From a bacterium (lineage in GTDB: Bacteria; Patescibacteriota; UBA1384; CAILIB01): a stretch of DNA of 64,000 bases. Below the pieces are notes generated by a model. That model did not search any database. It was given only the letters and a program-made list of their open reading frames with translations, and was not told the origin of the DNA. The first letter of the stretch is position 1, and each line of letters starts with the position of its first letter. The stretch lies in NCBI GenBank assembly GCA_037131105.1, contig JBAXRQ010000002.1, positions 94,100 through 158,099 of the forward strand. The letters run 5' to 3'. Positions 42,605 to 61,492 of the stretch are shown piece after piece. The position numbers and the translations under genes are program-made.

Positions 42605-42606
42605 AT

Positions 42607-43707: not shown

Positions 43708-43709
43708 TT

Positions 43710-44639: not shown

Positions 44640-44644
44640 GTCCG

Positions 44645-45207: not shown

Positions 45208-45221
45208 TATTCTTACCTTCC

Positions 45222-46061
45222 ATGCCTGAGATTCTTTCCGCCATCGTCTATTATCCCTTCGTCAACGTCCTCAACTTCTTTATTTGGGCGACGCCGGGCC
45301 ATTATGCAGCAGCAGGTATTGCCCTGCTGACCATCCTAGTACGGCTTGTCCTGATTGTCCCTTATAAGAAGGGGGCCCAGAGCCAGCGCCGTATGATGCA
45401 GCTGCAACCGCTGCTTGACGAGCTGAAGAAGGAATACGCTGGTGACCAGCAGGGTCTGGCAGCCGCCCAGATGGAGCTGTATAAGAAGAACAACATCAAC
45501 CCGTTCTCTAGCTGTGGTTCTCTTCTACTCCAGCTTCCGGTGCTATACCTCCTGTATTACACTATCCAGCACGGCCTAGTAGCTCACAATCCACACTTGT
45601 ACGGATGGCTGCCGAAGCCTGAGTTCATTAATACTGCTTTCTTTGGCATTGACCTGCTGAAGCCTGATAAGACGTTCATCCTACCTATTATTGCCTCCGG
45701 TCTGCAGTTGATCCAGGTGAAGATGACACTTCCTCCTAAGTCTGCCAGTAGTAATGACGCCCAGCAGGCTACCCAGCGGATGATGATGTACCTGGCACCG
45801 GCCCTCACATTGTATATCTCATATCGTCTCGAAGCCGGCGTAGCCGTGTACTGGATAGTGACCAACCTGTTCTCTATTGTTCAGCAGTACTATGTCAATA
45901 AGGAGCGCTTGAGCCTAACTGGTGTCGAGAAGGTTGTGGAAGCAGCTGAGAAGGCTCACCCAGAGGCAATCGCTGCTATGGAGAAGGCTGAAGCTGAGGT
46001 GTTGGGCACTGAAGTGAAGAAGGGCGTCCAGGTTACCGTTCGTAAGAAATCCAAAAAATAG
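45222..46061 (+). CDS. yidC: Membrane protein insertase YidC (short, Oxa1-like form).
   Basis: 279 aa. Five TM core with the conserved hydrophilic-groove arginine region (…PYKKGAQSQRRMMQLQPLL…) and a C-terminal basic tail. Follows yidD. Confidence 0.85.
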   Translation: MPEILSAIVYYPFVNVLNFFIWATPGHYAAAGIALLTILVRLVLIVPYKKGAQSQRRMMQLQPLLDELKKEYAGDQQGLAAAQMELYKKNNINPFSSCGSLLLQLPVLYLLYYTIQHGLVAHNPHLYGWLPKPEFINTAFFGIDLLKPDKTFILPIIASGLQLIQVKMTLPPKSASSNDAQQATQRMMMYLAPALTLYISYRLEAGVAVYWIVTNLFSIVQQYYVNKERLSLTGVEKVVEAAEKAHPEAIAAMEKAEAEVLGTEVKKGVQVTVRKKSKK

Positions 46062-46077
46062 CCACCCTTGTGGCTTT

Positions 46078-46167
46078 GGAGAGATGGCTGAGTGGTCGAA
46101 GGCGGCGGTCTCGAAAACCGTTATGCGGGCAACTGCATCTAGGGTTCGAATCCCTATCTCTCCGCCA
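46078..46167 (+). tRNA. tRNA-Ser (anticodon CGA), type II with long variable arm, CCA encoded.
   Basis: GGAGAGA (acceptor) … anticodon loop CU-CGA-AA … long variable arm TATGCGGGCAACTGCATC … T-arm TAGGG-TTCGAAT-CCCTA … TCTCTCC-G-CCA. Acceptor and T stems pair perfectly. Confidence 0.85.
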
Positions 46168-46431: not shown

Positions 46432-46800
46432 ATGGAAAGGCCATCCTTTCTGGGAAGCGCTCTGGAGCACGAAGCGTCAGTGGAATCCACTCAGGTTAGG
46501 AGCTTCATAGCGGATCTACTCCCTCAGGCCCTGGTGAGAATTGAGGGTACTATACTCCTGGCTGAGGTGGATAGAGGTGGAGCCAAGCGGGTTGGCGAAG
46601 AAATCTGGGGGGCTTATATTGAGATGATGGCCCAAGATGCCTTATTTTCTAGTGTTCATTATGAGCCTGGCTTTATATCAGCGGACCTGGTGAAGCCTGA
46701 GTCGGGTATCACCTCGTTACGGGTACGTAAGGTGGCCTCTACTCCTCAGGCTACATTACCGACAGCATATACCGGTCAACCGGTGCGTATTCATCAGTGA
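46432..46800 (+). CDS. Hypothetical protein.
   Basis: 122-aa ORF. No family recognised. Its 3' end overlaps the convergent spermidine-synthase-like gene by ~50 nt, so it may be spurious. Confidence 0.3.
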   Translation: MERPSFLGSALEHEASVESTQVRSFIADLLPQALVRIEGTILLAEVDRGGAKRVGEEIWGAYIEMMAQDALFSSVHYEPGFISADLVKPESGITSLRVRKVASTPQATLPTAYTGQPVRIHQ

Positions 46801-48241
46801 GTACTGGCTGGCTGGTCTCTACCTGTTTAGTCCAGAGATGATTAAAATACCCCTGGATCTCTTTGTCGGGACTTACGAATGAAGGCTTTGTGGGGCTTTT
46901 GAGTGCTACTATCATCACATTTTGGACATCGGTACCGTTTTCAGGTTTGTTGACCGCAAAAGCGTAGACCTGGGGAAATACCGACTTATAGGTGGCGTAC
47001 TCGGCTTGGAAGAACTGACTTTTGGGGCCGTTGATAGCGGAGATAACATTGAGGATCACCACTCCCTTTGGCGTGAGCCTGTCGTACATGCGCTGGACCG
47101 CTTCCTGGGTGGTCAGCTGGTAGGGTACCGACATTGATCTAAAGGCGTCACCGTAGATGACGTCATAGGTCTGGGTGGTCTCATTGAGATAGGTGCGGGC
47201 GTCAGCGTGGAAGATGTTCAGCCGGTCAGAATCCTTCAGGTTGAAATACTGCTTGGCTAGCTCGGTCACCTTGGGATCGATCTCCACCACGTCCATCTTA
47301 GCCTCTGGATAATGGGTTAGGAAATCCTTGGGATAGGAATAGGCCGCCCCACCCAGCATCAGTCCTCTACCCTGGGCAATGGCAGGGTTCAGAGTGCTGT
47401 CCAGCCTGTAATAGTTTGTGTAGGGAAAGGTAAGCTTGTCACCGTTAAGGTACATGGCAGAGCTAAACTCATTGCCGATCTGCATGAAGCGAGCTTCTTC
47501 AGTCTGCCCTGGAAAATAGCCAGAATAGATCCAGATACGAGAATATTGCGAGTCAGTATCGATAAAACCCTGCTGGGCCAGGACGAGGTCATGAACACGG
47601 AAGATGACCAGGCCGGCTACTAGTATGAGCGCCAGTCCAGTCTGCAGAGGCAGGCTGCGCCGGGTGAATCCGACGGCGAGGAGAGAAGCTGCCAGTAAGA
47701 TAGCGGCTACCAGAAGTAAGACGGTGGTGGTGCGTAGATACTCGATCAGGAAAAAGCCGGCTAGAAAGGTGCCGGTGATGCTCCCTAGGGTAGAAATAGC
47801 GTAGAGATTGCCCACGGTGCTACCTGTGTATTTAAGGGTCTCCATCTTCAGTTTCACCGCGTACGGCGATACCATGCCCAGCAGTACGGTAGCAGGGGCG
47901 AAGAGCACCAGACAGACTACCACCGAGCGGATATAGAGGGATTGGGTCGCGGCTGTGGCAAGGGTAAAGAGACTTCCCTGGATATAAGGTATGCAGGCCA
48001 CGAGTATGCCTGATACCAGTAAAAGGCTGGCTAAGACCTGGTAAGAAGGCCTGCGGTCGGCTAGGCGGCCACCCAGCCAGTATCCTAGGCTTAGGCTTCC
48101 CAGTATTATTCCGATCAGGCTGGACCAGACTACTATAGTGGTGCCCAGGTATGGAGAAAGCACCCGGGAGCCGTCTAATTCAAGGATCATGCCGGCAGCG
48201 CCGACCAAAAAGACGAGAATCTCTAGGAAGTATTTTTTCAT
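46751..48241 (-). CDS. Fused polytopic membrane domain plus spermidine-synthase-like (PABS) aminopropyltransferase domain.
   Basis: N-terminal ~220 aa with about seven hydrophobic helices. C-terminal GGAAYSYPKDFLTHYPEAKMDVVEIDPKVTELAKQYF…IYGDAF… matches the PABS/SpeE fold (GGGDG-like, D(V)VEID). Confidence 0.75.
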   Translation of the reverse strand: MKKYFLEILVFLVGAAGMILELDGSRVLSPYLGTTIVVWSSLIGIILGSLSLGYWLGGRLADRRPSYQVLASLLLVSGILVACIPYIQGSLFTLATAATQSLYIRSVVVCLVLFAPATVLLGMVSPYAVKLKMETLKYTGSTVGNLYAISTLGSITGTFLAGFFLIEYLRTTTVLLLVAAILLAASLLAVGFTRRSLPLQTGLALILVAGLVIFRVHDLVLAQQGFIDTDSQYSRIWIYSGYFPGQTEEARFMQIGNEFSSAMYLNGDKLTFPYTNYYRLDSTLNPAIAQGRGLMLGGAAYSYPKDFLTHYPEAKMDVVEIDPKVTELAKQYFNLKDSDRLNIFHADARTYLNETTQTYDVIYGDAFRSMSVPYQLTTQEAVQRMYDRLTPKGVVILNVISAINGPKSQFFQAEYATYKSVFPQVYAFAVNKPENGTDVQNVMIVALKSPTKPSFVSPDKEIQGYFNHLWTKQVETSQPVLTDEYAPVDRYMLSVM

Positions 48242-48778: not shown

Positions 48779-48990
48779 GATCTTCGCTGGTGTGGGCCCA
48801 CACGGCGGAGAACGCTCAGATCCTAAGACCGCCTTCCGAGGCAGCGTCGCTTCCGGGCTAACAGTTAAGGAATCGTCCTCCCTGCCACATCTACAATGTG
48901 GAAGATCTTCGCTGGTATGAGATTCATACGGCGGAGGCCGCTCAGATCCTAGGACCGCCTTCCGGCGGTCCGTCGCTCCCGAAGCGGCGT
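48779..48990. repeat. Two tandem ~100-nt structured repeats (candidate small RNAs) between the convergent RRM and pilB genes.
   Basis: Unit A GATCTTCGCTGG-GTGTGGGCCCACAC-GGCGGAGAACGCTCAGATCCTAAGACCGCCTTCCG… and unit B GATCTTCGCTGG-GTATGAGATTCATAC-GGCGGAGGCCGCTCAGATCCTAGGACCGCCTTCCGGCGGTCC…. Flanks are conserved while the hairpin stem covaries (GTGTGGG/CCCACAC versus GTATGAG/TTCATAC). Each unit also carries a tiny ATG…RRRxLRS* ORF (17-18 aa) whose hairpin-encoded residues are not conserved. Confidence 0.55.
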
Positions 48991-50510
48991 TAGGCCGAGG
49001 TAACTCGATAGATCTCTGACTCGGTGGTCATCCCCCGCTTTACCTTGTCCAGGCCGTCATTAAGCATGGAGACCATACCGCCACGCTCGGCGATCTGTTC
49101 CAGGCCTCCCTGGTCACGGTGCTGCATGACCGCTTGCTCGAACTCAGTGTTGGGGCAGAGTACTTCGCCGATGACTATGCGGCCGGAGTACTCTGGTTTC
49201 TCAGCGGTGGTTCCCGGTACCAGTTTGCGCACCAAGCGTTGGGCGACGACCATCTGGATACTGCCGGCCAGCAGGAACGGCTCGATTCCCATCTCCAGGA
49301 AACGGGTATGGGCAGTGACTGCGTTGTTGGTGTGCAGGGTGGAAAGCACCAGGTGGCCGGTAAGGCTGGCATTCAGGGCGATGGTGGCGGTCTCAGGGTC
49401 CCGAATTTCACCGATCATGACAATGTCAGGGTCCTGACGCATGGCCCCACGCAATCCTTCCGCAAAGGTGAAGCCGTGCTCGCTGTCGATCTGGCTCTGT
49501 TGCAATCCAGGTAGGCGGTACTCGATAGGATCCTCCAGGGTAATAATCTTCTTCTCGGGCGAGTTCAGTACTTTGAGCAGTGCGTACAAGGTAGTGGACT
49601 TTCCTGATCCGGTAGGTCCCGTCACAATGATTAGCCCGTAAGGCTTCTTGATGATCCTATTGATGAGTCCCTGGTTATATTCTGAGAATCCCAGCTCCTG
49701 GATGGTAAGGGTCTGCATGTCCTGGCGCAGTATTCTCATGACGATCCCCTCTCCGTAGCCAGTCGGGATGGTGGCGACGCGCAGGTCGGCGTTGATGCCT
49801 TTGTCTTGGAGGCCGAAGCGACCGTCCTGGGTGTTGCTCTTGTCGTCCAACTTCATCTTTGACTGGACCTTGATGCGGGAGACTAGGCCGTGATGCTGGG
49901 CCATGGGAAGCTCCAGAACCTTCTGTAGTACGCCATCTATGCGGAAGCGGATCTCCAGGACCTTCTCGCTAGGCTCGAGGTGGATATCCGAGGCCTGGGC
50001 ATTGAAGGCAGCGGCTAGAATAACATCTAGTAGTTCTGTCGTACTGGCCTTACCCGCCTGTTCGCGCAGGTCGTCCAGGGTACGGATGTTGTGGAAGTAG
50101 TCTTTTTTCTGCTCCTCGGTGCGGTTCCGGGAGAACTGAGCCTCTTCTTCCACCCGCTCATTACGGAGTTTCTGATAGGCGTCTATGAGCACATTCATAC
50201 TGGTTGCCGAGACTACGGTGAGCTCCAGGTCCTTATGCCAGTCATTCGCAAGGGCTATCAACTCCTTGTGGATCTCCTCATCGTCAGGGCGTTCTACCGC
50301 CATATGTACCTTGGTAGATGACCGCACGTAGGCGGCGTAGCGGCGCTTGGTAACCGTTTCTATAGGGACAAGCTCCAATACGTCCAGGTTAAAGGGGAAG
50401 TCGTCCAGCTGGGTAGTGGTCATTCCCATGTTGGCGGCCATGGCGGCGGCCTGGTGCTCTTCCTTCTCGCGCTGGAACTGCCTGAGTGAGACGTCTAATG
50501 AGGCGGGCAT
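48990..50510 (-). CDS. PilB/GspE-family secretion ATPase (type IV pilus / T2SS-like assembly ATPase; VirB11 superfamily).
   Basis: Walker A (IIVTGPTGSGKSTTLYALL), Asp box, Walker B and His box. ~506 aa with an N-terminal GspE_N-like domain. Confidence 0.85.
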   Translation of the reverse strand: MPASLDVSLRQFQREKEEHQAAAMAANMGMTTTQLDDFPFNLDVLELVPIETVTKRRYAAYVRSSTKVHMAVERPDDEEIHKELIALANDWHKDLELTVVSATSMNVLIDAYQKLRNERVEEEAQFSRNRTEEQKKDYFHNIRTLDDLREQAGKASTTELLDVILAAAFNAQASDIHLEPSEKVLEIRFRIDGVLQKVLELPMAQHHGLVSRIKVQSKMKLDDKSNTQDGRFGLQDKGINADLRVATIPTGYGEGIVMRILRQDMQTLTIQELGFSEYNQGLINRIIKKPYGLIIVTGPTGSGKSTTLYALLKVLNSPEKKIITLEDPIEYRLPGLQQSQIDSEHGFTFAEGLRGAMRQDPDIVMIGEIRDPETATIALNASLTGHLVLSTLHTNNAVTAHTRFLEMGIEPFLLAGSIQMVVAQRLVRKLVPGTTAEKPEYSGRIVIGEVLCPNTEFEQAVMQHRDQGGLEQIAERGGMVSMLNDGLDKVKRGMTTESEIYRVTSA

Positions 50511-50526: not shown

Positions 50527-53500
50527 TTACCAGCGGACATGTATGCGGTCCCAGAAACTTGAATCGGGGAAGAATCCGGCGCGGTAGTCTGTGATTGGCG
50601 TGTAATACTTGTACCCGTTCTTTTCCTGGACGGCATTGGTATTTGCCCTATCGGTAAGAGCGCCATACCCGTAGCTTCCATCCTGCTGCCATGGGGCTGG
50701 TTCTGACAGATATCCTTCCAAGGAACCCAGATCGCCTGCCGGATGACTAAATACTTGGGATACCCAGAGGGAATTCGGGTGGGTCTGTGAGATGCCTGCC
50801 CATTTCTCTGGCATCTGCAACAGGTCAAGTAGTACGCTGTGGACGTTCTGCTGGGCTACTGCCTTGACTCCGGCGGCGTAGGTCACGGGATTCTTGGCGT
50901 CGAAGTCACTCTGGGGAAGATTATTGGCAGCCAGGCTTGCTCCAGCATTGGGCGGATTCGGAGCGCCAAGCGGCCAGTAGCCGTCTCCGGTAGCTCTCTG
51001 CACAACCACTACCTTATATACTCCGAACAAGTTGACCAGGATGAACTGCAGCAGCATTACCGGTGCCAGGGCGGGGCAGATGAAGAGATCGACTATGGCA
51101 CCCACCAGGAGATCCAGGCTGCCCGGTACCAGTCCCAGGGAAGTTTCCAGGCTGCGCAGCTGGTCGCCGAATACCGTGGTGATGGCTAGGGTGATAAGGA
51201 AAGCGGCGGCATTATCCTTAGCGCCCTGGCTGGCGTTGGTGGTAAGGGTATGGACTGCCTTGTAGACGTTGTAGAGCTTCTGGGCGGTACCCGGTTTGAA
51301 GCCGAACATCTTGTCACCGAAGGCGAACAGCTTCTGCTGACCTATCTGGGTAAGCAGGTTTGACATGCTAGGCACGGGCTTGCCATCCTTTCCGAGCTTG
51401 CCGCTGCCGTTATGGAACACGTCGGAACTGAAACCGCTGGAAGCCCAGCCGGCGAAGGCCTGCATAAACTGGGGGGTATTCTGGGCGCCGATAAGCTCGT
51501 TCAGCTTGGCAGTCACAAAGCCCCCCACCTTGGCCATGATGGCGTCAATGGCGGCCTGTTTCAGTCCATCCGCATAGGCAGAGGCGTTCTTAAAGCCGTT
51601 GGCGGCGAAGTCCTTCAGGGTGGCTATGTCGGCGGCGGTGAGGGCGCTTCCCAGGGCTCCTGCCAGGGCAGAGTTGATACCGTACTGGGCCAGCATGGTC
51701 ATTCTCTCGGCATCGGTACCGTGGGTAAGTGTCTCAATGAAGCCTGCCGGGATGTTCTTGTCCACCGAGAACAGCAGGGTGTCATAGATGGCGTTCTGCA
51801 TCTGGGACTTTACGTCCTGGATGAGGCTCTTCTGGAAGTCCTTCTTACCGATCTCCTTGATAGCGTTGAGCTCAGGCCCGATACCGGGGTCGTTCAGACA
51901 GTTGTCCAAAGAGCCGCAGGGGGCATTGGGGTACTTATCCTTGAAATAGCTGTTCAGGGCGTCCTTGCCTGCCGCCTCGACAACCGCCGTCGATAGGCTG
52001 AAGTCCTTCAGACTGTCTCTGAGGTTCTGGTATTGCAGGATAAAGTCGTCAATACGGTCGGCAACCCCCTCAAGCTTGCCTAGACCCTTGTTAAGGGTGC
52101 CGATGAGTTCCTGGACGGCAATGTCGGTAAGGCTGCTGACGTCGCCAGAAAGGATGGCCTGCAGGTCGACATGGCCTATGAGCCCCGGTAGGTTTCCTCC
52201 CCCCAGCTTGGCAATCTCGGCATTGATCATGCTGTTCAGGCTGTCCTGGAGAAGATCGCGGGCAGCAGTCTTATTGAAATCGAGTGAACAGCTTTGGGAG
52301 CCAAAGGTAATGTCGCAGTTGGCCGAGAGGAAGGCATTGCGGAAGCTGGCGGTGAACCCGTCGATGTCAGCTTGGTCAGCAACATTGAATATCTTGCTGG
52401 CTAGCTTCTGCATGCCGATGGTAAGCGCGATCTCTGGTGCCTGGGACGGGTTTAGTACCAGATCGGTAATGGTACCTGCAGGTAGCTGCAGCTTTGACTC
52501 CATGTCAGCGCTCCAAGTCTGGGCAAGACCTAGGTAGAGTGCCTGACCGTTGATGTTGCTGAAGGCGTTTGAAAGAGACCCAAAGCCTCCGGCCGGAGCA
52601 TGGCACGATCTCAGGCTGCTGCTCCCCACGAGGTAACCGTACAGGTCGCATCCTGTGGCATTCTGGATGGCGGCAAGGAGGGCTTGGGCGCTGGCCGGCG
52701 CCCCATTGGCATTAAGATTGGCCTGGGTTTGGGCTAGCTGGTGCTGGGTGGACGGAGTATACAGGACGTCGGCGGTGATCTGGCCGGTAATAAAGCTCTT
52801 AAGAGAGTCACCAGGAGTGGCCCCCAGCCCGTAGAGGCCGTTCAGCTGGCTGGTCCGCGACTGCAATCCGGCAATCTGGTTAGCATAGTCATCGTCATTG
52901 ACCGAGTATTCGGACTTTGTGTTGTTGACTAGATCACTAATGGCTACGTAGCCGCCGTCATTGGTCAGATCATGCAACAAGGTGTCGAAGGAGTCCTTAT
53001 CTTTCTTGACCAGCGGATTGGTAATGATGCTATTTGGTGAAGTCTGCCAGTAGGGCGAATTCGAGTCACTGATCTGGGAAATGACATCCTTACGTGTCTT
53101 AGCAATATAATTGGTCAGGATCCGGTCAGCCTTAGGGTCTGCCTGGGACGGATCGATACTTACCCGAGAGCTGATTCCGCTAAGGATCTTCAGGGCCGCC
53201 TGTACAGAGGGTGGGTCCTGAAGGCCTAGGCTGGTAAGAATGGCGCCGGGATCATTAAGATCGACTACCTGCTTGAAGTCTCCTTTGAAGCTGTTGGCGA
53301 CCAGTCCGAGGCCCTGGCTGAGAAGAGAGTTTCCGAAGTTCTGGTTAAAGGTGCCTGGAGTGGTGATGTCAAAGCCGGCTGGGAAGCCCAGGTCGCTGGC
53401 TACCGCCTGTATCCCCATCTGGCCCATGAAGGCAAAGCGTGCCCCGCTTGCCTCGGCAGCCGTACAGGTCTGAGGACTGTCGGCTGTACCACAGATGGGA

Positions 53501-56500
53501 TCAGCCAGGTTGATAGCGGTGCCGCTCTTCCAGTCCATCCGTTCATCGATAAGCTTCCCTCCGATCTTGGTGAGAAGATTCTGGCTCTGTCCGGTGAAAA
53601 GGCTGACTAGGTCGTTTGTAGAAACCTTGTAGCGTTCGTCATAGCTACTGTTTCCTGAAATGAGGTTGGTAAGTAGCTGCTGGGAGCGCTCGGTTATTGT
53701 TTTGGCACCGAAGGATAGGGCGTCTTCATCATTGATAGGTTGACTCTTCTGAGAAGCGTCAGCACGACCCACGGACATCTCCAGGCCAGCAAGGCTACTG
53801 TTGCCGCTTGTGAGCCAGCCAGTCAGGCTGCCGCTAGGAAGGTTGAGTGACTGGGTGAGCTGACAGTCTGCGGTATGCTCTGAGAAGTTGGTCAGCTGGC
53901 TGTCCAAGGCGTTAGCACGTACGGGGTCCGAAGCATCGCTGGTCTGACGTCCTGAAAGAATGGCCTGCTTCAGGGTGTCAGCGGCGCTGCAGGATCCGCT
54001 GCCATAGGTGTTGCCTGTGGACAGGGATGCCTGAGGGGCTAGAGAGCTTTGGCTATTGCCGTCCTGGGGAGTGTCCAGGCCCCGACCCACGATTGCTTCC
54101 TGAATGACGTGTGCGGCCTTCATGACGTCCTGGCGGCCTGACTCGTTGGCCGGGGCTGAGTTCAGGATGGCTGACTCGATATCGACTATTGCCTTCCTAA
54201 CTGCTTCCACTCCGTTCGGAGCCGACTTGTCCTTGAAGGTAGACAACGCTGGAGTGGCTCCGGCAAGTCCTCCCGAAGAAATCAGGTTACTTACCAGCCC
54301 CTGAAGTTGAGAATAACGGGCGTAATAGAAATCATCCCCACTTGGATCCGCGACGTCAGGGGGCGTCGAGCTCCCTGATCCAGACTGGGCCTGGAGCTGG
54401 TCTGGGCGCAAAGGCAGGTCGGTGCGTCCCCAGACTCCCTTGAGCAGTTCAACGGTACCTATTCGGTCAAATACCTGACTAGCTTCCTTACGGTAGAAGA
54501 TACGGTCCATGTCGGCAGAATCCAGCAGGCCGTTGGTACTGAGGAGGGTGCTGACTCCCGTAGAAGTGAAGTCGCCTTGGTAGGGGGTGCCGTCACCGTT
54601 AACCTCGTTAAAGAGCTGGTGCTGGGCCACTTTGTCGGTCGTGAGGGCGTGAGTGGCAACCTGCTGGCCGATAGTCTTCAGGATGCCGAGGCCGCCTTTC
54701 AGAAGCGTGGCGACGGGATCTCCGCTTCCTGGCTGGACACTGCTGATCTGACCCTGGGGAGTAAAGGTTACCGAAGTGCTGGTCAAATTCAGGCTGGCGC
54801 CCATGCCTCCCTGTCCGATCTTGTCGAAGTATCCCAGTACGCCGTCATCCAGCTGGTGTAGTTGGGAGATGATGGCGCTCAAAGCGTTCTGGGCCTGCTT
54901 GGTACTGGTACTTGATACGTATCCCTCGGTGGAGGCACCTGTGGTAGACAACTGGGAAAGACGCTGCTGGGCGGCTTGGAACTGGGTGAGCCACCCTGAT
55001 GACCAGTTGGAAGGTGTAGGGTCGTTGACTGTGTTGAAGGTGTTCTTCAGAACGGTGATCCTATCGGCCTGGGTCTGGGTGGGCGGCAGATGATAGGTAT
55101 TGCTCCAGACTACATTCTTGATTTGGGGAACAAGGGTATCTGCCTGGGCCTGGGTGAAAGCGCCGGCTCTGACCAGAGCCGTAATGTTAGGATCCCCTGC
55201 TGGGGCCTCCGGAGGTACGACCAGAGGCTTTCCAGGGACTATGACAGTCGTGAGTGGAGGAATAGTGGTAGTACCGGAGGTAGTGAGAAGGCTGTAGAGG
55301 TTGTTCTGGTTACAAATGTCCAGAGGGTTGCTCTCCTTGAACTGCGACAGAACAGTAGTGCAGTCGAGGCCGTTTGCGGCGATAGAGGTAACTCCAACAA
55401 GGGGAAATGGTACGCCGGCGAAGGTTCCGGTCCGGGTAACTGTTTCGGTCTGGTCGGCAGCCGTAGCGGTAGTAGTGAAGCTACCGATGTCCCCTTGAAT
55501 GGTGCGAGTACCTACTAGGTTGAAATAATCACTCAGTGACTTCTGTCCTCCGATCAGTTTGGCGGTGGGCCGGTCAAAGTCAGCCTGGGCGGTGGGCACC
55601 CCGAAGCTCGGTGTGCTAGTACCGGGTGATATATAAGTGAGGTAGAGGTCCTTGTCGAGCTGGTCGGCATTGGTGTTGGAGAAAATGGCCTTAGCAGCCG
55701 GTCCGGCGGCGAGAAGCTGGCTGAAGTCCGATACTCGCAGGCTTTGAGGGGGCAGATTATAGAGCTCCTCGATCCGCCCTATGCCGATGGCCTTGGCAAT
55801 ATCGGCAGCGCTCTGGAGAGAGAAGCCAGTGCTTGGGCTGAGGGTACCGGGGGTTACATGGAAGACATTCTCCTCAAGATAGCGGCTTCCTATCGATGTC
55901 TGTATGGCGGCCGGAGTACTACCTTGTACGGAATCGGCGGGTAGGTTCAGCATTTGCTCCAGGGTGGACTGGCCGACATTCTGGGTTATGGTCCCCCCTT
56001 TGTTGACGAGGGCATTGGGGAGTAGGCCGAGCTGCTGGCTTAGGTAGGCTCGTCCGAAGTTGTCCAGTGTGGAGGAAAGGTCAGAGCCCTTTAGTCCCCC
56101 GGTTGGCCCTCCTATCAGCTGACTTAATAACGAGGCGCCGGTCTGTTTGACCAAGTCCCCGATATTATTCATCGTGATGCCGGAGATATTGACGCTCGTC
56201 TGCAGGTCGAGGTTGGCCAGGAAGGTATCGAAGCCTCCCTTGAATGCGTTCAGTGCTCCCTGGTAGACAGTGCTGATATTCGGCAGGCCGCCAGACTGGG
56301 AGATGCCCTCGTCAGTCTGCCAGGCTACCTTGGTGGGGAACTGGGTGTACTGATAACTTACCTTGTCTCTTCCTATTCGTTTCTTCTCGGTGATCTTGGT
56401 GGTGACCCGGATGTTATCGATAGCGTCGATATCAAGGGCCTTGGCCAGGCAGGTGCTTCCGTGCGGCGGGTTTACATCATAATAATGGGCCGAGAAGATA

Positions 56501-57474
56501 CCACCATTACATTCATTGCGTGGTGCTGTTGAGTCGTCATTGGCAGTGAACTCCTTGTTCACCCCACCGGTCTGTAAAATCTGCCCTACGTCGATAAGCT
56601 CATGTCCTGCCCCTCCTTCAGAGGTAGGAGTGACCAGGTAGGTGAGGGTCCTCAGGATGCGGACGTCGGCCTTCGGGGCGTCCCAGCAGTTGTTTACCCA
56701 GGCTACGTCGTCGTAGTAGAGGGGTTTCCAGGCCTTTATGTCCAGGGAGCAGCCCGGGTCACTTTGTTGCTGGGTGTTTCCGTCAGAGTCCTTTATGGCG
56801 ACTCCCTTATCATCTATCTTGACCTTGGTCTCATCGCAGGCATTGCCATCCAGCTTCCGGCACGGCTCGCCTACCAGACCATAATAGTCGAGTGGGTTTT
56901 TGAAGGTTATCTTATTGGTAGGGAGAGTTGCGGCAGTCAGGACGCTCTCGGTGAGGCCACTGATGCCAAGTGGAGAAAGGAGGCGGCTAGCATCCTGATT
57001 ACAGACCCACCACCCCCCATCGTCTGCTGCGCCGACTCGGGCGATTTGGCTTTCGGTATCGGGAGGATAGGTCGGGCCGATATCATCCTTGGTGACGAAG
57101 GTCATTCCCCCATCTGGATCCTCGCTATATTTTAAGTAATCCTGGTACGAGAGCTGGTCGTTCTCATCCAGGACACTAGCACTGTCCGGGCTGCCAGTAT
57201 CATTAAGGCCGCTGATATCGTCAGGGCTTAGCTTACTGTACTCGGTATTTCCGTCGACGTAGTTTGGATCGGCGCTAGCGATGCCCTGGCCAATGGCGTT
57301 GCAGCGCTGCGAGAGCTCGGATTTGGTAAATGCGGTAGAGGTCGGGGCGGCCTGCACGGCAGCTGTCGGCATGGCTGCGGAGAGGAGAGGAACGTACACC
57401 ATTGTCTGGGCCATGACAATGATCAGGGTGGTCTTCGTTCCGCGACGAAATTGAGAGAAGAAAGAGGCCATCAT
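50527..57474 (-). CDS. Giant (2315 aa) secreted/surface protein with an N-terminal signal peptide, long Ser/Thr/Gly/Asn/Gln-rich low-complexity body, and C-terminal hydrophobic (TM) segments.
   Basis: Uninterrupted 6.9-kb ORF. N-terminus MMASFFSQFRRGTKTTLIIVMAQTMVYVPLLSAAMPTAAVQA is signal-like. C-terminal …AAAFLITLAITTVFG…LLVGAIVDLFICPALAPVMLLQFILVNLFGVY… are TM helices. No enzymatic motif recognised. Confidence 0.7.
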   Translation of the reverse strand: MMASFFSQFRRGTKTTLIIVMAQTMVYVPLLSAAMPTAAVQAAPTSTAFTKSELSQRCNAIGQGIASADPNYVDGNTEYSKLSPDDISGLNDTGSPDSASVLDENDQLSYQDYLKYSEDPDGGMTFVTKDDIGPTYPPDTESQIARVGAADDGGWWVCNQDASRLLSPLGISGLTESVLTAATLPTNKITFKNPLDYYGLVGEPCRKLDGNACDETKVKIDDKGVAIKDSDGNTQQQSDPGCSLDIKAWKPLYYDDVAWVNNCWDAPKADVRILRTLTYLVTPTSEGGAGHELIDVGQILQTGGVNKEFTANDDSTAPRNECNGGIFSAHYYDVNPPHGSTCLAKALDIDAIDNIRVTTKITEKKRIGRDKVSYQYTQFPTKVAWQTDEGISQSGGLPNISTVYQGALNAFKGGFDTFLANLDLQTSVNISGITMNNIGDLVKQTGASLLSQLIGGPTGGLKGSDLSSTLDNFGRAYLSQQLGLLPNALVNKGGTITQNVGQSTLEQMLNLPADSVQGSTPAAIQTSIGSRYLEENVFHVTPGTLSPSTGFSLQSAADIAKAIGIGRIEELYNLPPQSLRVSDFSQLLAAGPAAKAIFSNTNADQLDKDLYLTYISPGTSTPSFGVPTAQADFDRPTAKLIGGQKSLSDYFNLVGTRTIQGDIGSFTTTATAADQTETVTRTGTFAGVPFPLVGVTSIAANGLDCTTVLSQFKESNPLDICNQNNLYSLLTTSGTTTIPPLTTVIVPGKPLVVPPEAPAGDPNITALVRAGAFTQAQADTLVPQIKNVVWSNTYHLPPTQTQADRITVLKNTFNTVNDPTPSNWSSGWLTQFQAAQQRLSQLSTTGASTEGYVSSTSTKQAQNALSAIISQLHQLDDGVLGYFDKIGQGGMGASLNLTSTSVTFTPQGQISSVQPGSGDPVATLLKGGLGILKTIGQQVATHALTTDKVAQHQLFNEVNGDGTPYQGDFTSTGVSTLLSTNGLLDSADMDRIFYRKEASQVFDRIGTVELLKGVWGRTDLPLRPDQLQAQSGSGSSTPPDVADPSGDDFYYARYSQLQGLVSNLISSGGLAGATPALSTFKDKSAPNGVEAVRKAIVDIESAILNSAPANESGRQDVMKAAHVIQEAIVGRGLDTPQDGNSQSSLAPQASLSTGNTYGSGSCSAADTLKQAILSGRQTSDASDPVRANALDSQLTNFSEHTADCQLTQSLNLPSGSLTGWLTSGNSSLAGLEMSVGRADASQKSQPINDEDALSFGAKTITERSQQLLTNLISGNSSYDERYKVSTNDLVSLFTGQSQNLLTKIGGKLIDERMDWKSGTAINLADPICGTADSPQTCTAAEASGARFAFMGQMGIQAVASDLGFPAGFDITTPGTFNQNFGNSLLSQGLGLVANSFKGDFKQVVDLNDPGAILTSLGLQDPPSVQAALKILSGISSRVSIDPSQADPKADRILTNYIAKTRKDVISQISDSNSPYWQTSPNSIITNPLVKKDKDSFDTLLHDLTNDGGYVAISDLVNNTKSEYSVNDDDYANQIAGLQSRTSQLNGLYGLGATPGDSLKSFITGQITADVLYTPSTQHQLAQTQANLNANGAPASAQALLAAIQNATGCDLYGYLVGSSSLRSCHAPAGGFGSLSNAFSNINGQALYLGLAQTWSADMESKLQLPAGTITDLVLNPSQAPEIALTIGMQKLASKIFNVADQADIDGFTASFRNAFLSANCDITFGSQSCSLDFNKTAARDLLQDSLNSMINAEIAKLGGGNLPGLIGHVDLQAILSGDVSSLTDIAVQELIGTLNKGLGKLEGVADRIDDFILQYQNLRDSLKDFSLSTAVVEAAGKDALNSYFKDKYPNAPCGSLDNCLNDPGIGPELNAIKEIGKKDFQKSLIQDVKSQMQNAIYDTLLFSVDKNIPAGFIETLTHGTDAERMTMLAQYGINSALAGALGSALTAADIATLKDFAANGFKNASAYADGLKQAAIDAIMAKVGGFVTAKLNELIGAQNTPQFMQAFAGWASSGFSSDVFHNGSGKLGKDGKPVPSMSNLLTQIGQQKLFAFGDKMFGFKPGTAQKLYNVYKAVHTLTTNASQGAKDNAAAFLITLAITTVFGDQLRSLETSLGLVPGSLDLLVGAIVDLFICPALAPVMLLQFILVNLFGVYKVVVVQRATGDGYWPLGAPNPPNAGASLAANNLPQSDFDAKNPVTYAAGVKAVAQQNVHSVLLDLLQMPEKWAGISQTHPNSLWVSQVFSHPAGDLGSLEGYLSEPAPWQQDGSYGYGALTDRANTNAVQEKNGYKYYTPITDYRAGFFPDSSFWDRIHVRW

Positions 57475-58547
57475 AGGAAGGATTTGTTGACCAATAGGTC
57501 GTGGCCGCCGCCGTTTTTGCCACCACCCTGCTTCCCAAGGGTGCTAAATACGAAGTCGGCGGTTAAAACGTGTTTAAAGCGCCCAGTATTAGCATTCTTT
57601 ATGCTTCCGGCCGGCCAGGTGATTGGGTTGTTGACGTAGAGGCTCTTGTTGGCGGGATTGTATCCGGTCACCACTACGACGTGCACGGTGCCATAAAACG
57701 TTCCCCTCGTATAGATGTTGAAGGGATAGCCTCCGTTGATCGATTTCACGGCTAAATTGTAGAGCTGGTTAGCGCTACTTGCTGAGGCAAAGTCATAGTT
57801 AGCGCTCTTTCCGTATTGCCTGGCTACGGCATTTACATAGGAGGGGCTTGATACTGCGTTGAAAACTTCCCCATCTGGGTGCGCGCTAGTCAAGTGGCCC
57901 TTGGTGATTTCGACATGGTTTGATAAGGGGGTTCTGGAGTGATCCCCATGCGCCAGATACATCATGATCATCAAGGCCGAGGTCATAGCGCACCAGTTAT
58001 GTCCACCCTGGATCAGGAGAGGAACGTCTAGGCAAGTACCACCTTGGTCACAGGCCGTGGCTCCCCCAGGAAGGAGCTGATTGAGAGTCTTGCTATCAGC
58101 GATGAACTGTTTGGCGGCAGTCGTGCGCTTGTTCTTGCTGACCGTATCTATCGCCCCTATGGTCTGGCGCACAATGTCGATTTCCCCGACCATTCTATCT
58201 ATAAGAGGGATGAGCTCCGTGGAAGTGATGTTGGCATAGCCGGGCTTCTTCCCCTGGATATTACCCTTGATTGTCTGGAGGCGTGCCTTGAGGGCGTCGA
58301 GCTGGGCGGCATTTGCCAGGAGGAACTTGCCAGGGTCATTGTAGAGGGCCAGCTCTGACATGAGCTGAGCAATTGCAGGATCGGAGGGATCTGCCGGCTG
58401 CACGGCGGTATCACCAGTAGGACAGGGACCGGTACAGGTGTTTCCCGATCCAAAAGAGGCCGCCGCCAATAGAAAAAGCGTAGCCAGCATGATGCCGAGC
58501 ATGATGTAGATGTTGGCGCCTCCCCCCTTCTTTTCTGGTTCAGCCAC
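57471..58547 (-). CDS. Membrane-anchored C39-like (papain-fold, Peptidase_C39_2-type) cysteine peptidase domain protein.
   Basis: N-terminal TM (IYIMLGIMLATLFLLAAASF). …QGGHNWCAMTSALMIMMYL… (Cys) and …YGTVHVVVVTGYN… (His) spacing fits the C39-like fold. By eye only. Confidence 0.45.
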   Translation of the reverse strand: MAEPEKKGGGANIYIMLGIMLATLFLLAAASFGSGNTCTGPCPTGDTAVQPADPSDPAIAQLMSELALYNDPGKFLLANAAQLDALKARLQTIKGNIQGKKPGYANITSTELIPLIDRMVGEIDIVRQTIGAIDTVSKNKRTTAAKQFIADSKTLNQLLPGGATACDQGGTCLDVPLLIQGGHNWCAMTSALMIMMYLAHGDHSRTPLSNHVEITKGHLTSAHPDGEVFNAVSSPSYVNAVARQYGKSANYDFASASSANQLYNLAVKSINGGYPFNIYTRGTFYGTVHVVVVTGYNPANKSLYVNNPITWPAGSIKNANTGRFKHVLTADFVFSTLGKQGGGKNGGGHDLLVNKSFL

Positions 58548-58575: not shown

Positions 58576-59883
58576 CTATAAGGCTAATCCAACGGTATAC
58601 AGTGAACTATCGGTGTAGAATATCAGCGTCTTGCTTGTTCCGAAATAGAACATGCCCTTGATCGATAGCTGGGTCGGGAAGGCAAATACCACTTCCTTGC
58701 TGGTGCCGTCGATGCCATATGAGGTAATGGCGTTACTGTTCTGACTGGGGAGGTAAAAGCCGCTACTACCCTTCCAGGCTGCTTGGGCGACCTTGCCTGC
58801 CACATTCAGCTGTTTCTGCCCACTCCCATCCGGCTTCATGGTACCGAGAACGCTGATTCCTGCCGACTGACTCTCATAGAGAATTATACCACTGTCGGGA
58901 GAGAAAGAGGCATCGAGGATGGAGCCGCCAGTCGTCAGCTGCTTCAGGGTGCCATCCGCCGTGGTGTACACCCAAAGATTCTCAAGTCCTGGGTCGCTGG
59001 AACGAGCTACTAGAAGTATATAGGCGTCATTGGGAGACCAAATCAGTTTAGGATTGGGAATGGCACTGAGGTCTGCCTTGCGGTCCATCTTGGTAAGGCG
59101 CTTATCGCTAAATACCAATGAGCGCTCGCCCCCGGCGGTAAAGTAGGCGAAGGCCAACCGCTCGGGGTTCAGGGGGTCCCAGATGGGTGAGATTATCTCG
59201 GGGCCGCCCAGTTTGACCAGGGTTTGGGTAGTAAAGTTAAACGTAGGAATTTCTCTAAGGTAGACCCCGTCAGCTTCGGTGATGAGGGCGACATCAGGCT
59301 GACTTGACCACTGGACATCACTTACTCCATGCAGATTAGTGGTAGTGAGCGGCACACGGATCTGGCTGCTGATGTTCATTCGGTAAATGGTCTTGCGGTT
59401 GTCTCCCAGGTAGAAGACTGATTTTTCGTCAACAGAAGGCCTCACGTAGTCGACGGTGGCCACCTCTGACTGCTTGCTGGTGGGCTGGAAGGCGTAGGCC
59501 GGACGTACCTGGAGACTCTGCCCCCTGCCCAGTAGGATGTCCTGCACAAAGGGAAGGTAGTGGGTCTTGGCGATCTGCAGCCGGTAGCTCCCAGCGAATA
59601 CGGTGATCTCGTAGCCCTTGTTGGTGAGCTTGGTTGGTGCCTTCTGGCCGTTCAGGGTAATGGTGATATCCTTGCTGGTGTCGAGAATGAGAATGGTACT
59701 GCGACCGCTGGTATACAGGTATAGCCCCAGTAATGACAGGATGAACGCGGCTATGACGGCCGTAATCCCCCAGCTGCGTAGCTTCTTGCGGCGGATATCC
59801 TTAGTAAAAGGACTTGAAGATACAGGGGGTACCTTGCCCGTACTGGGCTTGTTGGGTGCGATAATAGGTGGCGGTGTCTCCAC
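58576..59883 (-). CDS. Bitopic membrane protein with a TolB-like (PD40/WD40-like) beta-propeller ectodomain.
   Basis: N-terminal TM (ITAVIAAFILSLLGLYLY). Repeated …WSP(N/D)…Y…… / …SFSPDSGIILYES… blocks typical of PD40 blades. Confidence 0.5.
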   Translation of the reverse strand: METPPPIIAPNKPSTGKVPPVSSSPFTKDIRRKKLRSWGITAVIAAFILSLLGLYLYTSGRSTILILDTSKDITITLNGQKAPTKLTNKGYEITVFAGSYRLQIAKTHYLPFVQDILLGRGQSLQVRPAYAFQPTSKQSEVATVDYVRPSVDEKSVFYLGDNRKTIYRMNISSQIRVPLTTTNLHGVSDVQWSSQPDVALITEADGVYLREIPTFNFTTQTLVKLGGPEIISPIWDPLNPERLAFAYFTAGGERSLVFSDKRLTKMDRKADLSAIPNPKLIWSPNDAYILLVARSSDPGLENLWVYTTADGTLKQLTTGGSILDASFSPDSGIILYESQSAGISVLGTMKPDGSGQKQLNVAGKVAQAAWKGSSGFYLPSQNSNAITSYGIDGTSKEVVFAFPTQLSIKGMFYFGTSKTLIFYTDSSLYTVGLAL

Positions 59884-59886: not shown

Positions 59887-60393
59887 CTACTTTTTCGGAA
59901 CTGCAGGGGCGGCCGGCTTCGGAGTAGGTGCGGCCACTGGGAAGGCGCTGCCTTGGAGAGTAACGCTATTGGCTATCTGGTGCAGGATAAAGCTGACCGA
60001 GGCGAAGACTATGCCGCCTATGACTATTCCGATGATCCGCTGCTTAGCCTTCTTGGACTGCTCTGGTGAGACGCCTCCGAACATATACTGGACGCCAGAA
60101 AAGGCGATGGCGATGACTGCCACGAACAGAACCAGTGGAGAGATCTGCCTAATGATCTGGTCCATATACTGTGGGAAGGTGGTATTGTTCGTACAGCCAC
60201 TGACCAGGACCCCCTGGAAGCAGGGCTGGGAGGTGGGCTGGGGCGGTAGAAGGGATCCGACCGGACCCCCCACAACAGGAGTAGTCCCAGCAGCATAGAC
60301 ATGGGTCACACTTAATACGGCCAAAGCGTAGAATGAAGCGGCAAGTCCTACGAGGCGGGAGGCAGATCTATGGGTCATAGACTCATGATACAC
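59887..60393 (-). CDS. Small membrane protein with VirB2/TrbC-pilin-like architecture (signal peptide plus two hydrophobic helices).
   Basis: 168 aa. Signal-like N-terminus; two hydrophobic segments (ISPLVLFVAVIAIAFSGVQYMFGG … IIGIVIGGIVFASVSFIL) separated by a short polar loop; Pro/Ala-rich C-terminal tail. Architecture only, no sequence-level proof. Confidence 0.4.
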   Translation of the reverse strand: MYHESMTHRSASRLVGLAASFYALAVLSVTHVYAAGTTPVVGGPVGSLLPPQPTSQPCFQGVLVSGCTNNTTFPQYMDQIIRQISPLVLFVAVIAIAFSGVQYMFGGVSPEQSKKAKQRIIGIVIGGIVFASVSFILHQIANSVTLQGSAFPVAAPTPKPAAPAVPKK

Positions 60394-60418: not shown

Positions 60419-61492
60419 TTAGAGCGAAAGCGTGTAGAGTGTTGCATTGGTGAGAATCAAGACGCTGTCACCAAAGGGTAGTATCTGGTCTATGTTCTGA
60501 ATATAGGGCCCGTCAACTGAGTGGGTTGAAGTAACGGACCCACCTTCTGAAAGACTAACCATGATTACCTCGTCTCCGGCAGGAGAGGCTGCCACTAGTA
60601 GCTGGGAACCCACCCATGCCTGGGTCTGTCCGCACGCAGTAGTAGTATCGGTTACCTTGGAAGAGTACAGGCTAATCACTGATGCTGAATCAACTTGATG
60701 CTGAAATGCCAGGGTGCCTTCTGCTGACCACCCGATGAGGCCGGTAATAGCGGCGGCCACGTTTTTTTTGACAGTGCCGTTGGCCTCGATAATGGTGAGG
60801 CTGCTCTGGTCTCCGTCAGAGGATTGGTCGCTCACCATGAGGGCAATTCGCCCGTCTTTTTGTGAAATGACCATCTGATCAACCTGTCCTGTAATCTTGG
60901 AAAGGTTGAGGTTTCCTCCTCCCGGAGTCAGTGCGATTAGTTGGGTTGTGGCGCCATCCACGCTGCCCACTGCGTACACTACCTGCCCACTCATGCTCCA
61001 GGCACCTGAGGAGCCCGGAATGTCAGTAAGGGTGCCACTGGCGGCATTGAGAAGCTTCAGTGTCTTGGAATCGTCATCACTTTCGCCGGCGTATGAAAGC
61101 AGGGCGGTCTTTGAGTCTGGCGACCATTGGATCTGCCGGGGGGTAGGGTCAAGTGTGGTGATGGTGGTTACAGCCTTAGTTGCGGCTGAATATTCCTTGA
61201 GATTGCCGTCGCTGTCCAGATATCGAACCACTTGACCACCACTGACTGGGCTAGCCCGGTCTACGGTGTTGGCATCGACTGCTATGGCCACAGGAGTGGC
61301 AACCGGGAAGGGAGTTGGTACAACGCCGGGGGTACCTTGGCTGCTAGTAGCTGTCACGCCGGTATTCCCGGTTGATGTTGTGGCATGTCTCTTGGAAAAA
61401 TAGAGCGAAAGCAGGGCTCCTACTCCGAGTACAACAACCACGGCGGCGAGAATGAGGGTTGGCTTGGGGGTGCGTAGGTTCATGGTTACCAC
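60419..61492 (-). CDS. Second bitopic membrane protein with a TolB-like beta-propeller ectodomain.
   Basis: N-terminal TM (LILAAVVVVLGVGALLSLYF). Repeated …WSPDSKTALLSY…, …G(T/S)L(T/K)…, and …DG(R/A)…A(L/M)… blade-like blocks. Confidence 0.5.
   Translation of the reverse strand: MVTMNLRTPKPTLILAAVVVVLGVGALLSLYFSKRHATTSTGNTGVTATSSQGTPGVVPTPFPVATPVAIAVDANTVDRASPVSGGQVVRYLDSDGNLKEYSAATKAVTTITTLDPTPRQIQWSPDSKTALLSYAGESDDDSKTLKLLNAASGTLTDIPGSSGAWSMSGQVVYAVGSVDGATTQLIALTPGGGNLNLSKITGQVDQMVISQKDGRIALMVSDQSSDGDQSSLTIIEANGTVKKNVAAAITGLIGWSAEGTLAFQHQVDSASVISLYSSKVTDTTTACGQTQAWVGSQLLVAASPAGDEVIMVSLSEGGSVTSTHSVDGPYIQNIDQILPFGDSVLILTNATLYTLSL

Follow-up and report, generated by a model that had tools for sequence, protein, structure and literature searches.

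The 64,000-nucleotide stretch analysed here (the window; positions 94,100 to 158,099 of contig JBAXRQ010000002.1, assembly GCA_037131105.1, from a Patescibacteriota bacterium of the lineage UBA1384; CAILIB01) encodes a giant protein of 2315 aa within a type IV secretion system (T4SS) locus. In the T4SS loci of Patescibacteria, which are ultrasmall epibiotic bacteria, the giant gene keeps a constant position downstream of virB4, and its product belongs to a large, unannotated and fast-evolving family with a fixed architecture. We argue, with roughly even confidence, that this fixed component of the locus is an envelope-spanning, host-facing T4SS scaffold with a degenerate head that recognises peptidoglycan peptides. 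On this best reading it is neither a beta-rich adhesin fibre nor a secreted cargo. A preliminary description of the window, made from the letters alone, had seen a low-complexity surface fibre or cargo of a secretion apparatus, and that observation holds in part.

Synteny ties the gene to the T4SS. Loci were collected by exact-protein look-ups, a scan of the GTDB species genomes and a scan of JGI metagenomes. Twelve of these are independent and include the upstream flank (the window, L003, L004, L005/7, L006, L008, L009, L010/15, L011, L012, L013 and L014). VirB4 lies 3-6 kb upstream of the giant gene in 12/12. PrgI and a TraC-like gene precede VirB4 wherever the flank extends. In tblastn searches a TolB-like propeller falls between VirB4 and the giant gene, except in L003, where it comes after the giant gene, and L011, where it was undetected. 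The named genomes are two unclassified 'Patescibacteria group' metagenome-assembled genomes, two Berkelbacteria and one Saccharibacteria. The giant gene is the largest of the locus, and its position is conserved from Saccharibacteria to Berkelbacteria. The preliminary description had put it in a secretion operon. That membership stands, and the operon is specifically of the Patescibacteria type, given the VirB4 fragment, the VirB2-like pilin, PrgI and the TraC-like gene.

The operon order was read on L001, a longer contig (283 kb, from ENA) reached by exact-protein look-up. In the direction of transcription it runs PrgI (VirB3-like), TraC-like/TrsD, VirB4, an Amidase_2 protein, a 357-aa bitopic protein, a VirB2/TrbC-like pilin, a TolB-like propeller, a Peptidase_C39_2 protein, the giant gene and PilB/T2SSE. 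The genes flanking the giant gene are all co-oriented on the minus strand. The stop codon of the C39-like gene overlaps the giant-gene ATG by 4 nt (ATGA), and PilB starts 16 nt past the giant-gene stop. The earlier placement of the gene, after the amidase, propeller and C39-like peptidase genes and before PilB on the same strand, was thus correct. The cluster has a VirB4-type ATPase with PrgI/VirB3 and a TrsD/TraC-like gene directly upstream, as expected of a Patescibacteria-type T4SS. The VirB2-like pilin and the chromosomal site near dnaA agree with the published description too (PMC12102498). The genes dnaA, dnaN, recF, rpmH, rnpA and yidC all lie within 16 kb of the cluster. Neither a relaxase nor VirD4 is present among the called genes of L001. 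Patescibacteria T4SSs are chromosomal, oriC-proximal and MPF-FATA-derived, with pilins present and the relaxase absent (PMC12102498). The locus is a chromosomal, oriC-proximal, MPF-FATA-derived cluster of this type.

The junction at the start of the giant gene recurs. The overlap with the upstream gene is 4 nt in L003 and L009, as in the window, and 14 nt in L004. In both loci where the adjoining upstream gene has a family match it is of a wall-hydrolase type: C39_2 in the window and M23 in L009. In L003, L004 and L005 the abutting gene has no family match; the next gene upstream in L005 encodes a VanY protein. The Saccharibacteria locus (L009) reads VirB4, C39_2 peptidase, PEGA/PD40 propeller, M23 peptidase, a 2797-aa giant protein and a LamG protein, and it is the M23 gene that overlaps the giant-gene start. 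On the other side, PilB directly follows the giant gene in L002, L004, L006 and L012 as well; in L003 the pilin and propeller genes stand before it.

The giant gene spans positions 50527-57474 on the minus strand and encodes 2315 aa plus a stop codon. It is one ATG-started open reading frame covering 10.9% of the window, so the single 6.9-kb frame of about 11% that was first noticed is confirmed. The exact protein is on record at NCBI as 'MAG: hypothetical protein WCO52_05830 [bacterium]', and the identical protein is present on two contigs. A word-indexed search found P0002 (2277 aa) and P0003 (2280 aa) in other samples, with 28-30% identity across 93% of the length. Two longer relatives (~2950 aa), one Berkelbacterial, match it in the N- and C-terminal parts. 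This is a real, intact, single gene. The preliminary description had named frameshifts, assembly chimerism and orthologues split into several genes as grounds for rejecting it. None of these was found: the alignments with P0002 and P0003 cover 93% of the length, and collinearity extends to 71 full-length relatives.

How large the family is became clear when a profile of residues 150-720 was searched exhaustively with HMMER against 1.84 billion cluster representatives. The search recovered 244 clusters at E <= 1e-3; 200 of these reach E <= 1e-10 and 121 reach E <= 1e-30, which puts the family at no fewer than 244 sequence clusters. Nearly all relatives are 1400-3300 aa long. Among the best 150 of the 244 clusters the median is 2370 aa, about three quarters are longer than 1800 aa, and the N-domain (defined as DxRhLxxLxYLVTP...GGAG...AxDI...WQT) keeps a constant position near the N-terminus (~residues 100-750). 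A [TS]xDGY[YWF]P motif stands 120-200 aa before the C-terminus in 71/150 of them. A MAFFT alignment of these 71 full-length relatives is collinear. Its conserved islands are residues 255-600, 950-1010, 1200-1400, 1650-1690, 1900-1920, 2050-2240 and the extreme C-terminus; residues 1-250, 660-900 and 1450-1650 are variable. An N-terminal hydrophobic segment occurs in 66/71, and two to four hydrophobic segments sit just ahead of TxDGYYP, in most cases with none between these and the N-terminal one. The window protein has every defining feature: the N-terminal signal, the N-domain, LxLPxGS repeats, the transmembrane (TM) cluster with [TS]xDGY[YWF]P, a length of more than 1400 aa and a place downstream of virB4. 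Further word-indexed searches with the full-length and N-domain alignments gave no new relatives, the candidate list being saturated. No family in Pfam, NCBIfam or PHROGs covers the whole protein. This sizeable family stands without a Pfam or NCBIfam model and without a detectable fold relative.

Published accounts of T4SSs in the candidate phyla radiation (CPR) do not mention a giant component (PMC12102498, PMC10633639), and neither does a recent T4SS review. The survey of 2474 CPR virB4 loci did not mention it because only genes matching existing hidden Markov models (HMMs) were catalogued (PMC12102498). Giant CPR membrane proteins have been discussed only generally, as attachment factors (PMC8080830).

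The protein evolves quickly. Between loci VirB4 is 67-87% identical and PilB 55-68%, while the giant protein is 26-39% identical, which places it among the fastest-evolving products of the locus. Other extracytoplasmic proteins of the locus are fast-evolving too. The preliminary description had suspected hypervariability driven by low-complexity repeats. The fast evolution is there, but the proposed route is not. L, A, S, G and T are abundant in the protein, and 38% of it is S+T+G+N+Q, yet its Shannon entropy per 100 aa is an ordinary 3.66-4.08 bits. Tandem Repeats Finder and a repeat finder detected no meaningful DNA repeats inside the gene. A template/variable pair of the diversity-generating retroelement type was also considered and rejected, as the gene has no repeat partner elsewhere in the window. 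The 'low-complexity' label and repeat-driven hypervariability are therefore unsupported.

A Sec-type signal peptide or N-terminal anchor occupies residues 1-42 (57349-57474, minus strand), with a hydropathy peak of 1.91 at residues 17-35. Its n-region has R10, R11 and K14, its h-region covers 17-34, and by eye cleavage is possible after SAA34 or VQA42. The signal peptide claimed earlier looks to be of the Sec type, then, with a hydrophobic stretch after RR/K and SAA/VQA sites behind it. No double-glycine leader, which would have suggested a substrate of the C39-like peptidase, is visible at the N-terminus.

Conservation across the family peaks in an alpha/beta N-domain at residues ~255-395 (56290-56712, minus). 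In the window protein it reads DxRILxxLxYLVTP-GGAGH ... SAH ... AxDI ... KVAWQT, which we regard as a degenerate LAS (VanY/M15)-like pattern. In the AlphaFold2 model, residues 271-281 of this domain form a helix and residues 348-382 a long beta hairpin; the domain has a predicted local distance difference test score (pLDDT) of ~75-89. The family consensus is DxRVLxTLxYLVTPxxxGGAGHxRIKVxRI ... SAHxxGQAVDISEID ... PIKVAWQTxxG. The motif SxHxxGxAxD is a hallmark of the LAS/M15 (VanY-type) zinc peptidases. In the window protein the SxHxxGxAxD(I) motif lies at residues 328-349 (SAHYYDVNPPHGSTCLAKALDI; 56428-56493, minus), and an insertion of 11 residues found in the window's clade splits it (H330 ... 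D348). It therefore reads SAH-(17 residues)-D and the H-x6-D spacing is broken. The motif is canonical in 30/52 anchored members, and H and D are invariant in 28 canonical members. Relatives of ~2900-3300 aa such as P0004 are without the motif His, and P0004 is without the Asp too. The earlier statement that no catalytic motif is visible was half right, for the motif is there in degenerate form.

The comparison with true LAS peptidases (MEROPS M15: VanX, VanY and the phage L-Ala-D-Glu endopeptidases; PF02557) can be taken further. An Arg-containing strand, SxHxxGxAxD and a Trp-containing third motif come in the same order in both, and SAHxxGQAVDI of the family is comparable to SMHEAGLAFDI of the VanY protein encoded in L005. 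The third motif differs: where VanY has E-x-W-H (E-A-W-H in the L005 protein), the giant proteins have V-A-W-Q-T. Across the family an invariant Gln thus replaces the second zinc-ligand His, and the catalytic Glu is absent. All these comparisons are below significance. Compact N-domains of relatives match VanY (E = 0.0036-0.13), DUF5715 (0.0017) and Extensin-like_C (0.17) in Pfam on the motif stretch, below the gathering score; the best VanY match has 17.5 bits against a cut-off of 25 (E = 0.0036). When 28 whole relatives were compared with Pfam, only DUF5715 (5), HTH_68 (4) and VanY (2) recurred, and all other families were singletons. We take DUF5715 and Extensin-like_C to belong to the same Pfam clan as VanY. 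The N-domain is a candidate LAS-derived but non-canonical domain. It is more probably a pseudo-enzyme that binds stem peptides than an active hydrolase. Both statements are leads drawn from sequence comparison. The VanY protein of L005 (positions 7018-8325, 435 aa) has its own SxHxxGxAxD / EAWH site intact, and part of the L009 C39_2 protein is similar to its N-terminal half.

Beyond the N-domain comes a repeat. An iterated motif HMM finds four tandem copies of a helix-loop motif at residues 466-580 (55735-56079, minus) with a period of ~28 aa. The motif has ~21 residues, [hydrophobic]-G-x3-[hydrophobic]-E-x2-L-x-L-P-x-G-S-L, and there are about ten copies per protein; six dispersed ones lie at ~1198, 1300, 1376, 1650, 2040 and 2107. 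In the model the tandem block alternates helix and extended loop at a pLDDT of ~90. Pfam has no match on the repeat region of the query, and relatives show weak HTH_68 and Cro matches on the motif. A true helix-turn-helix DNA-binding repeat can be rejected, since the model has 8-12 extended residues after the LPxGS loop and no recognition helix.

The predicted ectodomain amounts to ~2050 aa and has no internal hydrophobic segments by hydropathy. Its part from residue 581 to 2087 (51214-55734, minus) is predominantly alpha-helical by AlphaFold secondary structure, pLDDT and the conservation profile. AlphaFold2 was run on two halves with alignments of 30 sequences each. The N half (41-1150) has a mean pLDDT of 63.9 and a predicted template modelling score (pTM) of 0.51, and the C half (1151-2315) has 68.4 and 0.42. 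Over both halves, 53% of residues are modelled as helix, 6% as strand and 40% as coil. The confident blocks are an alpha/beta domain at ~190-390, the helical repeat block at 466-660, and helical regions at 760-960 and 1200-1620. A helical region of lower confidence includes the TM helices, and a long helix at 2196-2229 is followed by a small beta-rich C-terminal domain. Foldseek with both halves against PDB and with the N half against BFVD returned generic helical matches only (E >0.008, probability <0.2). A beta-helix or Ig-like fibre or adhesin fold, as first suggested, is at odds with these models, and no adhesin domain was found.

The membrane anchor lies at residues 2088-2158 (51001-51213, minus). 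By hydropathy it begins with a hydrophobic helix (2088-2105) and, after the motif LETSLGLVPGSL, ends with a helical hairpin at 2120-2158 whose two hydrophobic arms are separated by PALAP; LETSLGLVPGSL is one copy of the helix-loop motif. The model places the helices at 2083-2101, 2119-2132 and 2134-2150. The same arrangement is seen across the family: a moderately hydrophobic helix, QIAxxExxLGLVPGTG, two hydrophobic helices with a Pro turn, (K/R)-rich residues, TxDGYYP and a module of ~120-200 aa. The C-terminal TM helices of the preliminary description are accordingly present. A conserved C-terminal module of ~155 aa follows (residues 2159-2315; 50530-51000, minus), marked by [TS]xDGY[YWF]P and conserved in alignment A8. 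It starts T-G-D-G-Y-W-P, continues with a long helix and ends with a small beta-rich domain closing on HVRW (pLDDT 65-82). It has no Pfam match, and a profile search of PDB sequences gave no meaningful match. With three spans the module would be cytoplasmic and could dock on the ATPase platform; with two it would be outside. In the canonical-motif clade (P0005, P0039, P0048, P0054 and others in A8) it has three conserved Cys and one His, in the pattern C-T-x-DGYYP ... C-x-x-x-GG-C ... T-H-I-G-F, and the Cys residues are lost in the window's clade. They could form a metal site or disulfides.

We argue the following scenario accounts best for these features. The giant gene would be co-transcribed with the T4SS genes and translationally coupled to the hydrolase-type gene upstream, as the shared orientation and the overlap suggest. 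Its product would be exported by Sec via the N-terminal signal. The C-terminal cluster of 2-3 hydrophobic helices would then anchor it in the epibiont membrane beside the inner-membrane platform of the T4SS. The mostly helical ectodomain of ~2050 aa would reach through the cell wall and S-layer as an extended scaffold pointing to the host. At its membrane-distal end a putative LAS-derived domain would keep H...D of the zinc site, with Gln for the second His and without the catalytic Glu. As a lead, this domain and the ~ten helix-loop repeats may recognise or weakly process peptidoglycan stem peptides. The giant protein could in this way position the co-encoded amidase, C39-like peptidase and TolB-like propeller, and guide the VirB2-like pilus or channel through two cell walls. 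Its fast divergence would fit a host-facing surface. The preliminary description of a surface-displayed fibre anchored by its C-terminus survives in the part that concerns export and C-terminal membrane anchoring, both most likely, but not in its fold, which the models show as helical rather than beta. The idea that it is cargo fares worse. A Sec-type signal, a conserved TM cluster and strict single-copy conservation in the machine's own operon all argue for a built-in component rather than a substrate.

Several points weigh against this scenario. The function assigned to the protein is drawn from its gene neighbourhood. Model confidence is moderate (mean pLDDT 64 and 68), and residues ~1000-1200 are not interpretable because the alignments are distorted there, a result of aligning half-queries globally to whole proteins. 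The LAS assignment is not backed by statistics: the Pfam matches are below the gathering score (best E = 0.0017-0.0036), and hhalign of the N-domain against the L005 VanY protein gives the three motifs in order at a probability <1%. Profile searches of PDB sequences with the N-region and a compact N-domain gave no meaningful match. No LAS enzyme is among the 50 best Foldseek matches listed per library for the N half (PDB, BFVD), none of which reaches E <= 0.001. The insertion of 11 residues splits the motif in the window protein itself, and hydrolysis is doubtful since the second zinc-ligand His is Gln family-wide. With either 2 or 3 spans possible, the C-terminal module may lie on either side of the membrane. 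Finally, the T4SS cluster of Ca. Southlakia epibionticum has no gene above 1113 aa (PMC10633639 supplement), so the giant form is lineage-specific and not universal.

Southlakia also provides a precedent. It is the one cultivated species in which the T4SS has been put to the test. Its T4SS is essential for epibiotic growth (PMC10633639), and the Patescibacteria T4SS is the first shown, in Southlakia, to be essential for growth of the carrier bacterium (PMC10633639). Directly after VirB4 its cluster encodes an essential 1113-aa Hedgehog/DD-peptidase protein, and an essential lysozyme/cysteine-proteinase protein is encoded there too (PMC10633639 supplement). The former, SEML1_0007 (cluster SEML1_0006-0019), resembles the giant protein in being large, unannotated, directly downstream of virB4 and near dnaA (PMC10633639 supplement). 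Its Hedgehog/DD-peptidase domain is M15-type, and the N-domain of the giant protein is putatively M15-like. By description rather than by sequence comparison, it differs in having half the size and in carrying the peptidase domain C-terminally (951-1105) and not N-terminally. By analogy, it offers a precedent for a LAS-type domain in a T4SS locus.

The wall hydrolases of Gram-positive conjugative (MPF-FATA) systems (VirB1-like PrgK, TraG of pIP501, CwlT, TcpG) are typically a few hundred to <900 aa long. Like the giant gene, theirs lie beside virB4 in a monoderm-type T4SS cluster. They carry SLT, CHAP, NlpC-P60 or LytM domains with intact catalytic residues, in contrast to the giant protein with its degenerate LAS-like N-domain only. 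Pfam and Foldseek against PDB detected no similarity in sequence or fold between the two. The hydrolases are likewise exported or membrane-anchored with peptidoglycan-hydrolase-type domains, and are thought to open the wall for the channel (PMC12102498).

Three functional alternatives rank below the scaffold as less likely. The one that survives best, though it is still unlikely, is a host-recognition adhesin. Here the ectodomain binds the host surface and sets host range, and the T4SS linkage only ensures co-expression. The large predicted ectodomain, its C-terminal anchoring and the fast divergence relative to VirB4 suit this idea. CPR giant membrane proteins are also generally proposed as attachment mediators (PMC8080830), and no PrgB-type adhesin is known in CPR T4SS loci (PMC12102498). 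However, no adhesin, lectin, Ig or beta-helix domain was found, and the models are mostly helix. The features of Gram-positive adhesins (PrgB-type, LPXTG, beta-rich repeats) are lacking: only 6% is strand, Pfam has no adhesin domain on it, and the C-terminus is a globular module after the TM helices. No LPXTG was seen in the C-terminal sequence by eye, no pattern search having been run. Conserved islands along the whole length and a strongly conserved C-terminal module suggest contacts with the machine besides ligand binding. It must be said that this explanation overlaps with the scaffold and is compatible with it.

An improbable alternative is that the protein substitutes for VirB6/TrbL. Its C-terminal TM cluster would be the translocon or pilus-assembly platform and its ectodomain an appendage, as in 'extended VirB6' proteins. 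No polytopic VirB6-like protein was found in the cluster in the window, L003, L004, L006 or L012. With PrgI and the pilin set aside, every other membrane protein there is bitopic, which leaves the giant protein as the sole large one to have a cluster of several hydrophobic helices. VirB6 homologues were detected in just 480 cases in CPR genomes, against 2474 for VirB4 (PMC12102498). Extended VirB6 proteins such as the Rickettsiales RvhB6 paralogues are also very large T4SS membrane proteins with big hydrophilic domains (PMC12857230). They differ in having a TrbL/VirB6 domain with five or more TM helices, against 2-3 hydrophobic helices in the giant protein. Neither the giant protein nor any of 28 relatives matches TrbL/VirB6 even at E <= 1. 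The absence of VirB6 refers to the cluster. In L005 (Berkelbacteria, GCA_026397135.1) the giant protein coexists with a separate 1032-aa protein (L005 positions 1-50) that adjoins the giant-gene cluster and has weak TrbL/VirB6 matches. VirB6 substitution stays as a minority reading because no other polytopic VirB6-like protein is encoded in the cluster.

A substrate or extruded element of the T4SS is more improbable still. The protein would be an effector, or something like a tape measure or T7 gp16 whose hydrophobic hairpin is inserted in the host envelope. Many tape-measure proteins combine long alpha-helical stretches, a wall-hydrolase-type domain and hydrophobic segments, as the giant protein does. 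Phage tape-measure proteins are enriched among the viral Foldseek matches of the N half (E = 0.03-1), one relative has a PHROG tape-measure match (E = 0.0025), and T7 core proteins are among the weak C-half matches (E ~0.9). None of this is significant (probability <0.2, TM-score <0.1). The tape-measure- or tail-annotated viral matches have E >= 0.03, the best viral match of any kind has 0.009, and the query itself has no match in PHROGs. Weak viral matches that are mostly tape-measure proteins are what one would expect for any long helical protein. The gene lies in a chromosomal T4SS context and its Sec-type signal argues for ordinary export. The cluster does not encode a VirD4 coupling protein, and strict single-copy conservation in the operon is typical of structural parts.

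We put no higher than VirB6 substitution a bolder version of these ideas, in which the family is an unrecognised host-penetrating T4SS element. It would be tape-measure-like, with a pseudo-peptidase head and a hairpin bridging the envelopes, or it would double as the 'missing' VirB6-type platform. If true, it would define the means by which ultrasmall bacteria tap into a host. A frameshifted or chimeric assembly, or genes fused by sequencing error, has only the unusual length and metagenomic origin as grounds and can be dismissed, being already refuted by collinear orthologues: the identical protein is on two contigs, it aligns over the whole length with relatives of 2277-2345 aa from other samples, and the N- and C-terminal modules co-occur in relatives that are mostly longer than 1800 aa. 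The scaffold remains the reading we prefer. It makes the giant protein a defined, testable candidate for an envelope-spanning, host-facing part of the machine and a concrete experimental target.

The remaining genes of the operon in the window, all on the minus strand, are as follows. The VirB4-type ATPase (63613-63987, P-loop_TraG match) is represented by its C-terminal 124 aa, as the gene runs past the window end; the full protein in L001 has 602 aa, and the PrgI/VirB3 and TraC-like genes lie further upstream, beyond the window end. The Amidase_2 protein (61486-63603, 705 aa) has an N-acetylmuramoyl-L-alanine amidase domain (Pfam E = 7.6e-15) at residues 524-653 and a lone hydrophobic segment at 255-273, so ~250 N-terminal residues should be across the membrane from the amidase domain. 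The 357-aa bitopic protein (60419-61492) has no family match in Pfam or NCBIfam. The VirB2/TrbC-like pilin (59887-60273; 128 aa as called in L001, the mechanical open reading frame reaching 60393) has two TM segments and matches T4SS_pilin (E = 1.2e-8) and TrbC (E = 1.5e-7) in Pfam. The TolB/PD40-like beta-propeller (58576-59883, 435 aa) is bitopic with an N-terminal TM segment and matches the NCBIfam TolB propeller at E = 9e-9, under the family cut-off. The Peptidase_C39_2 protein (57471-58547, 358 aa; papain-like, Pfam E = 1e-13) is also bitopic, with its TM segment at residues 13-31. The PilB/GspE-type T2SSE ATPase (48990-50510, 506 aa, Pfam E = 2e-112) has a weak MshEN N-domain; it is a type IV pilus-type ATPase retained in a T4SS operon.

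Downstream of PilB come a gene for an RRM protein, yidC, rnpA, rpmH, dnaA, dnaN and recF. Two 57-nt direct repeats (48799-48855 and 48925-48981), 82% alike and with GGCGG...CCGCC stems, lie in the space separating the PilB stop from the RRM-protein gene, which converges on it, and are possible tandem terminators. At 46751-48241 (minus) a 496-aa protein has ~nine hydrophobic segments fused to a spermine/spermidine-synthase-like methyltransferase domain. The origin region (38308-46167) has recF, dnaN and dnaA on the minus strand and rpmH, rnpA, yidC and tRNA-Ser(CGA) on the plus strand, and the GC skew changes sign at ~42-46 kb. An element of ~50-57 nt with an internal hairpin (e.g. GTACTCCTTCGGAGTAC) occurs at 42631-42684, 42738-42819, 42983-43032, 43059-43115 and 8465-8518. 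Its copies are mostly intergenic just upstream of dnaA, with one 34 kb away, and it could be part of oriC or a small element resembling repetitive extragenic palindromes (REP-like). A ribbon-helix-helix antitoxin / PIN-domain toxin pair (43710-44343, minus) sits between rpmH/rnpA and dnaA, in the replication origin region itself.

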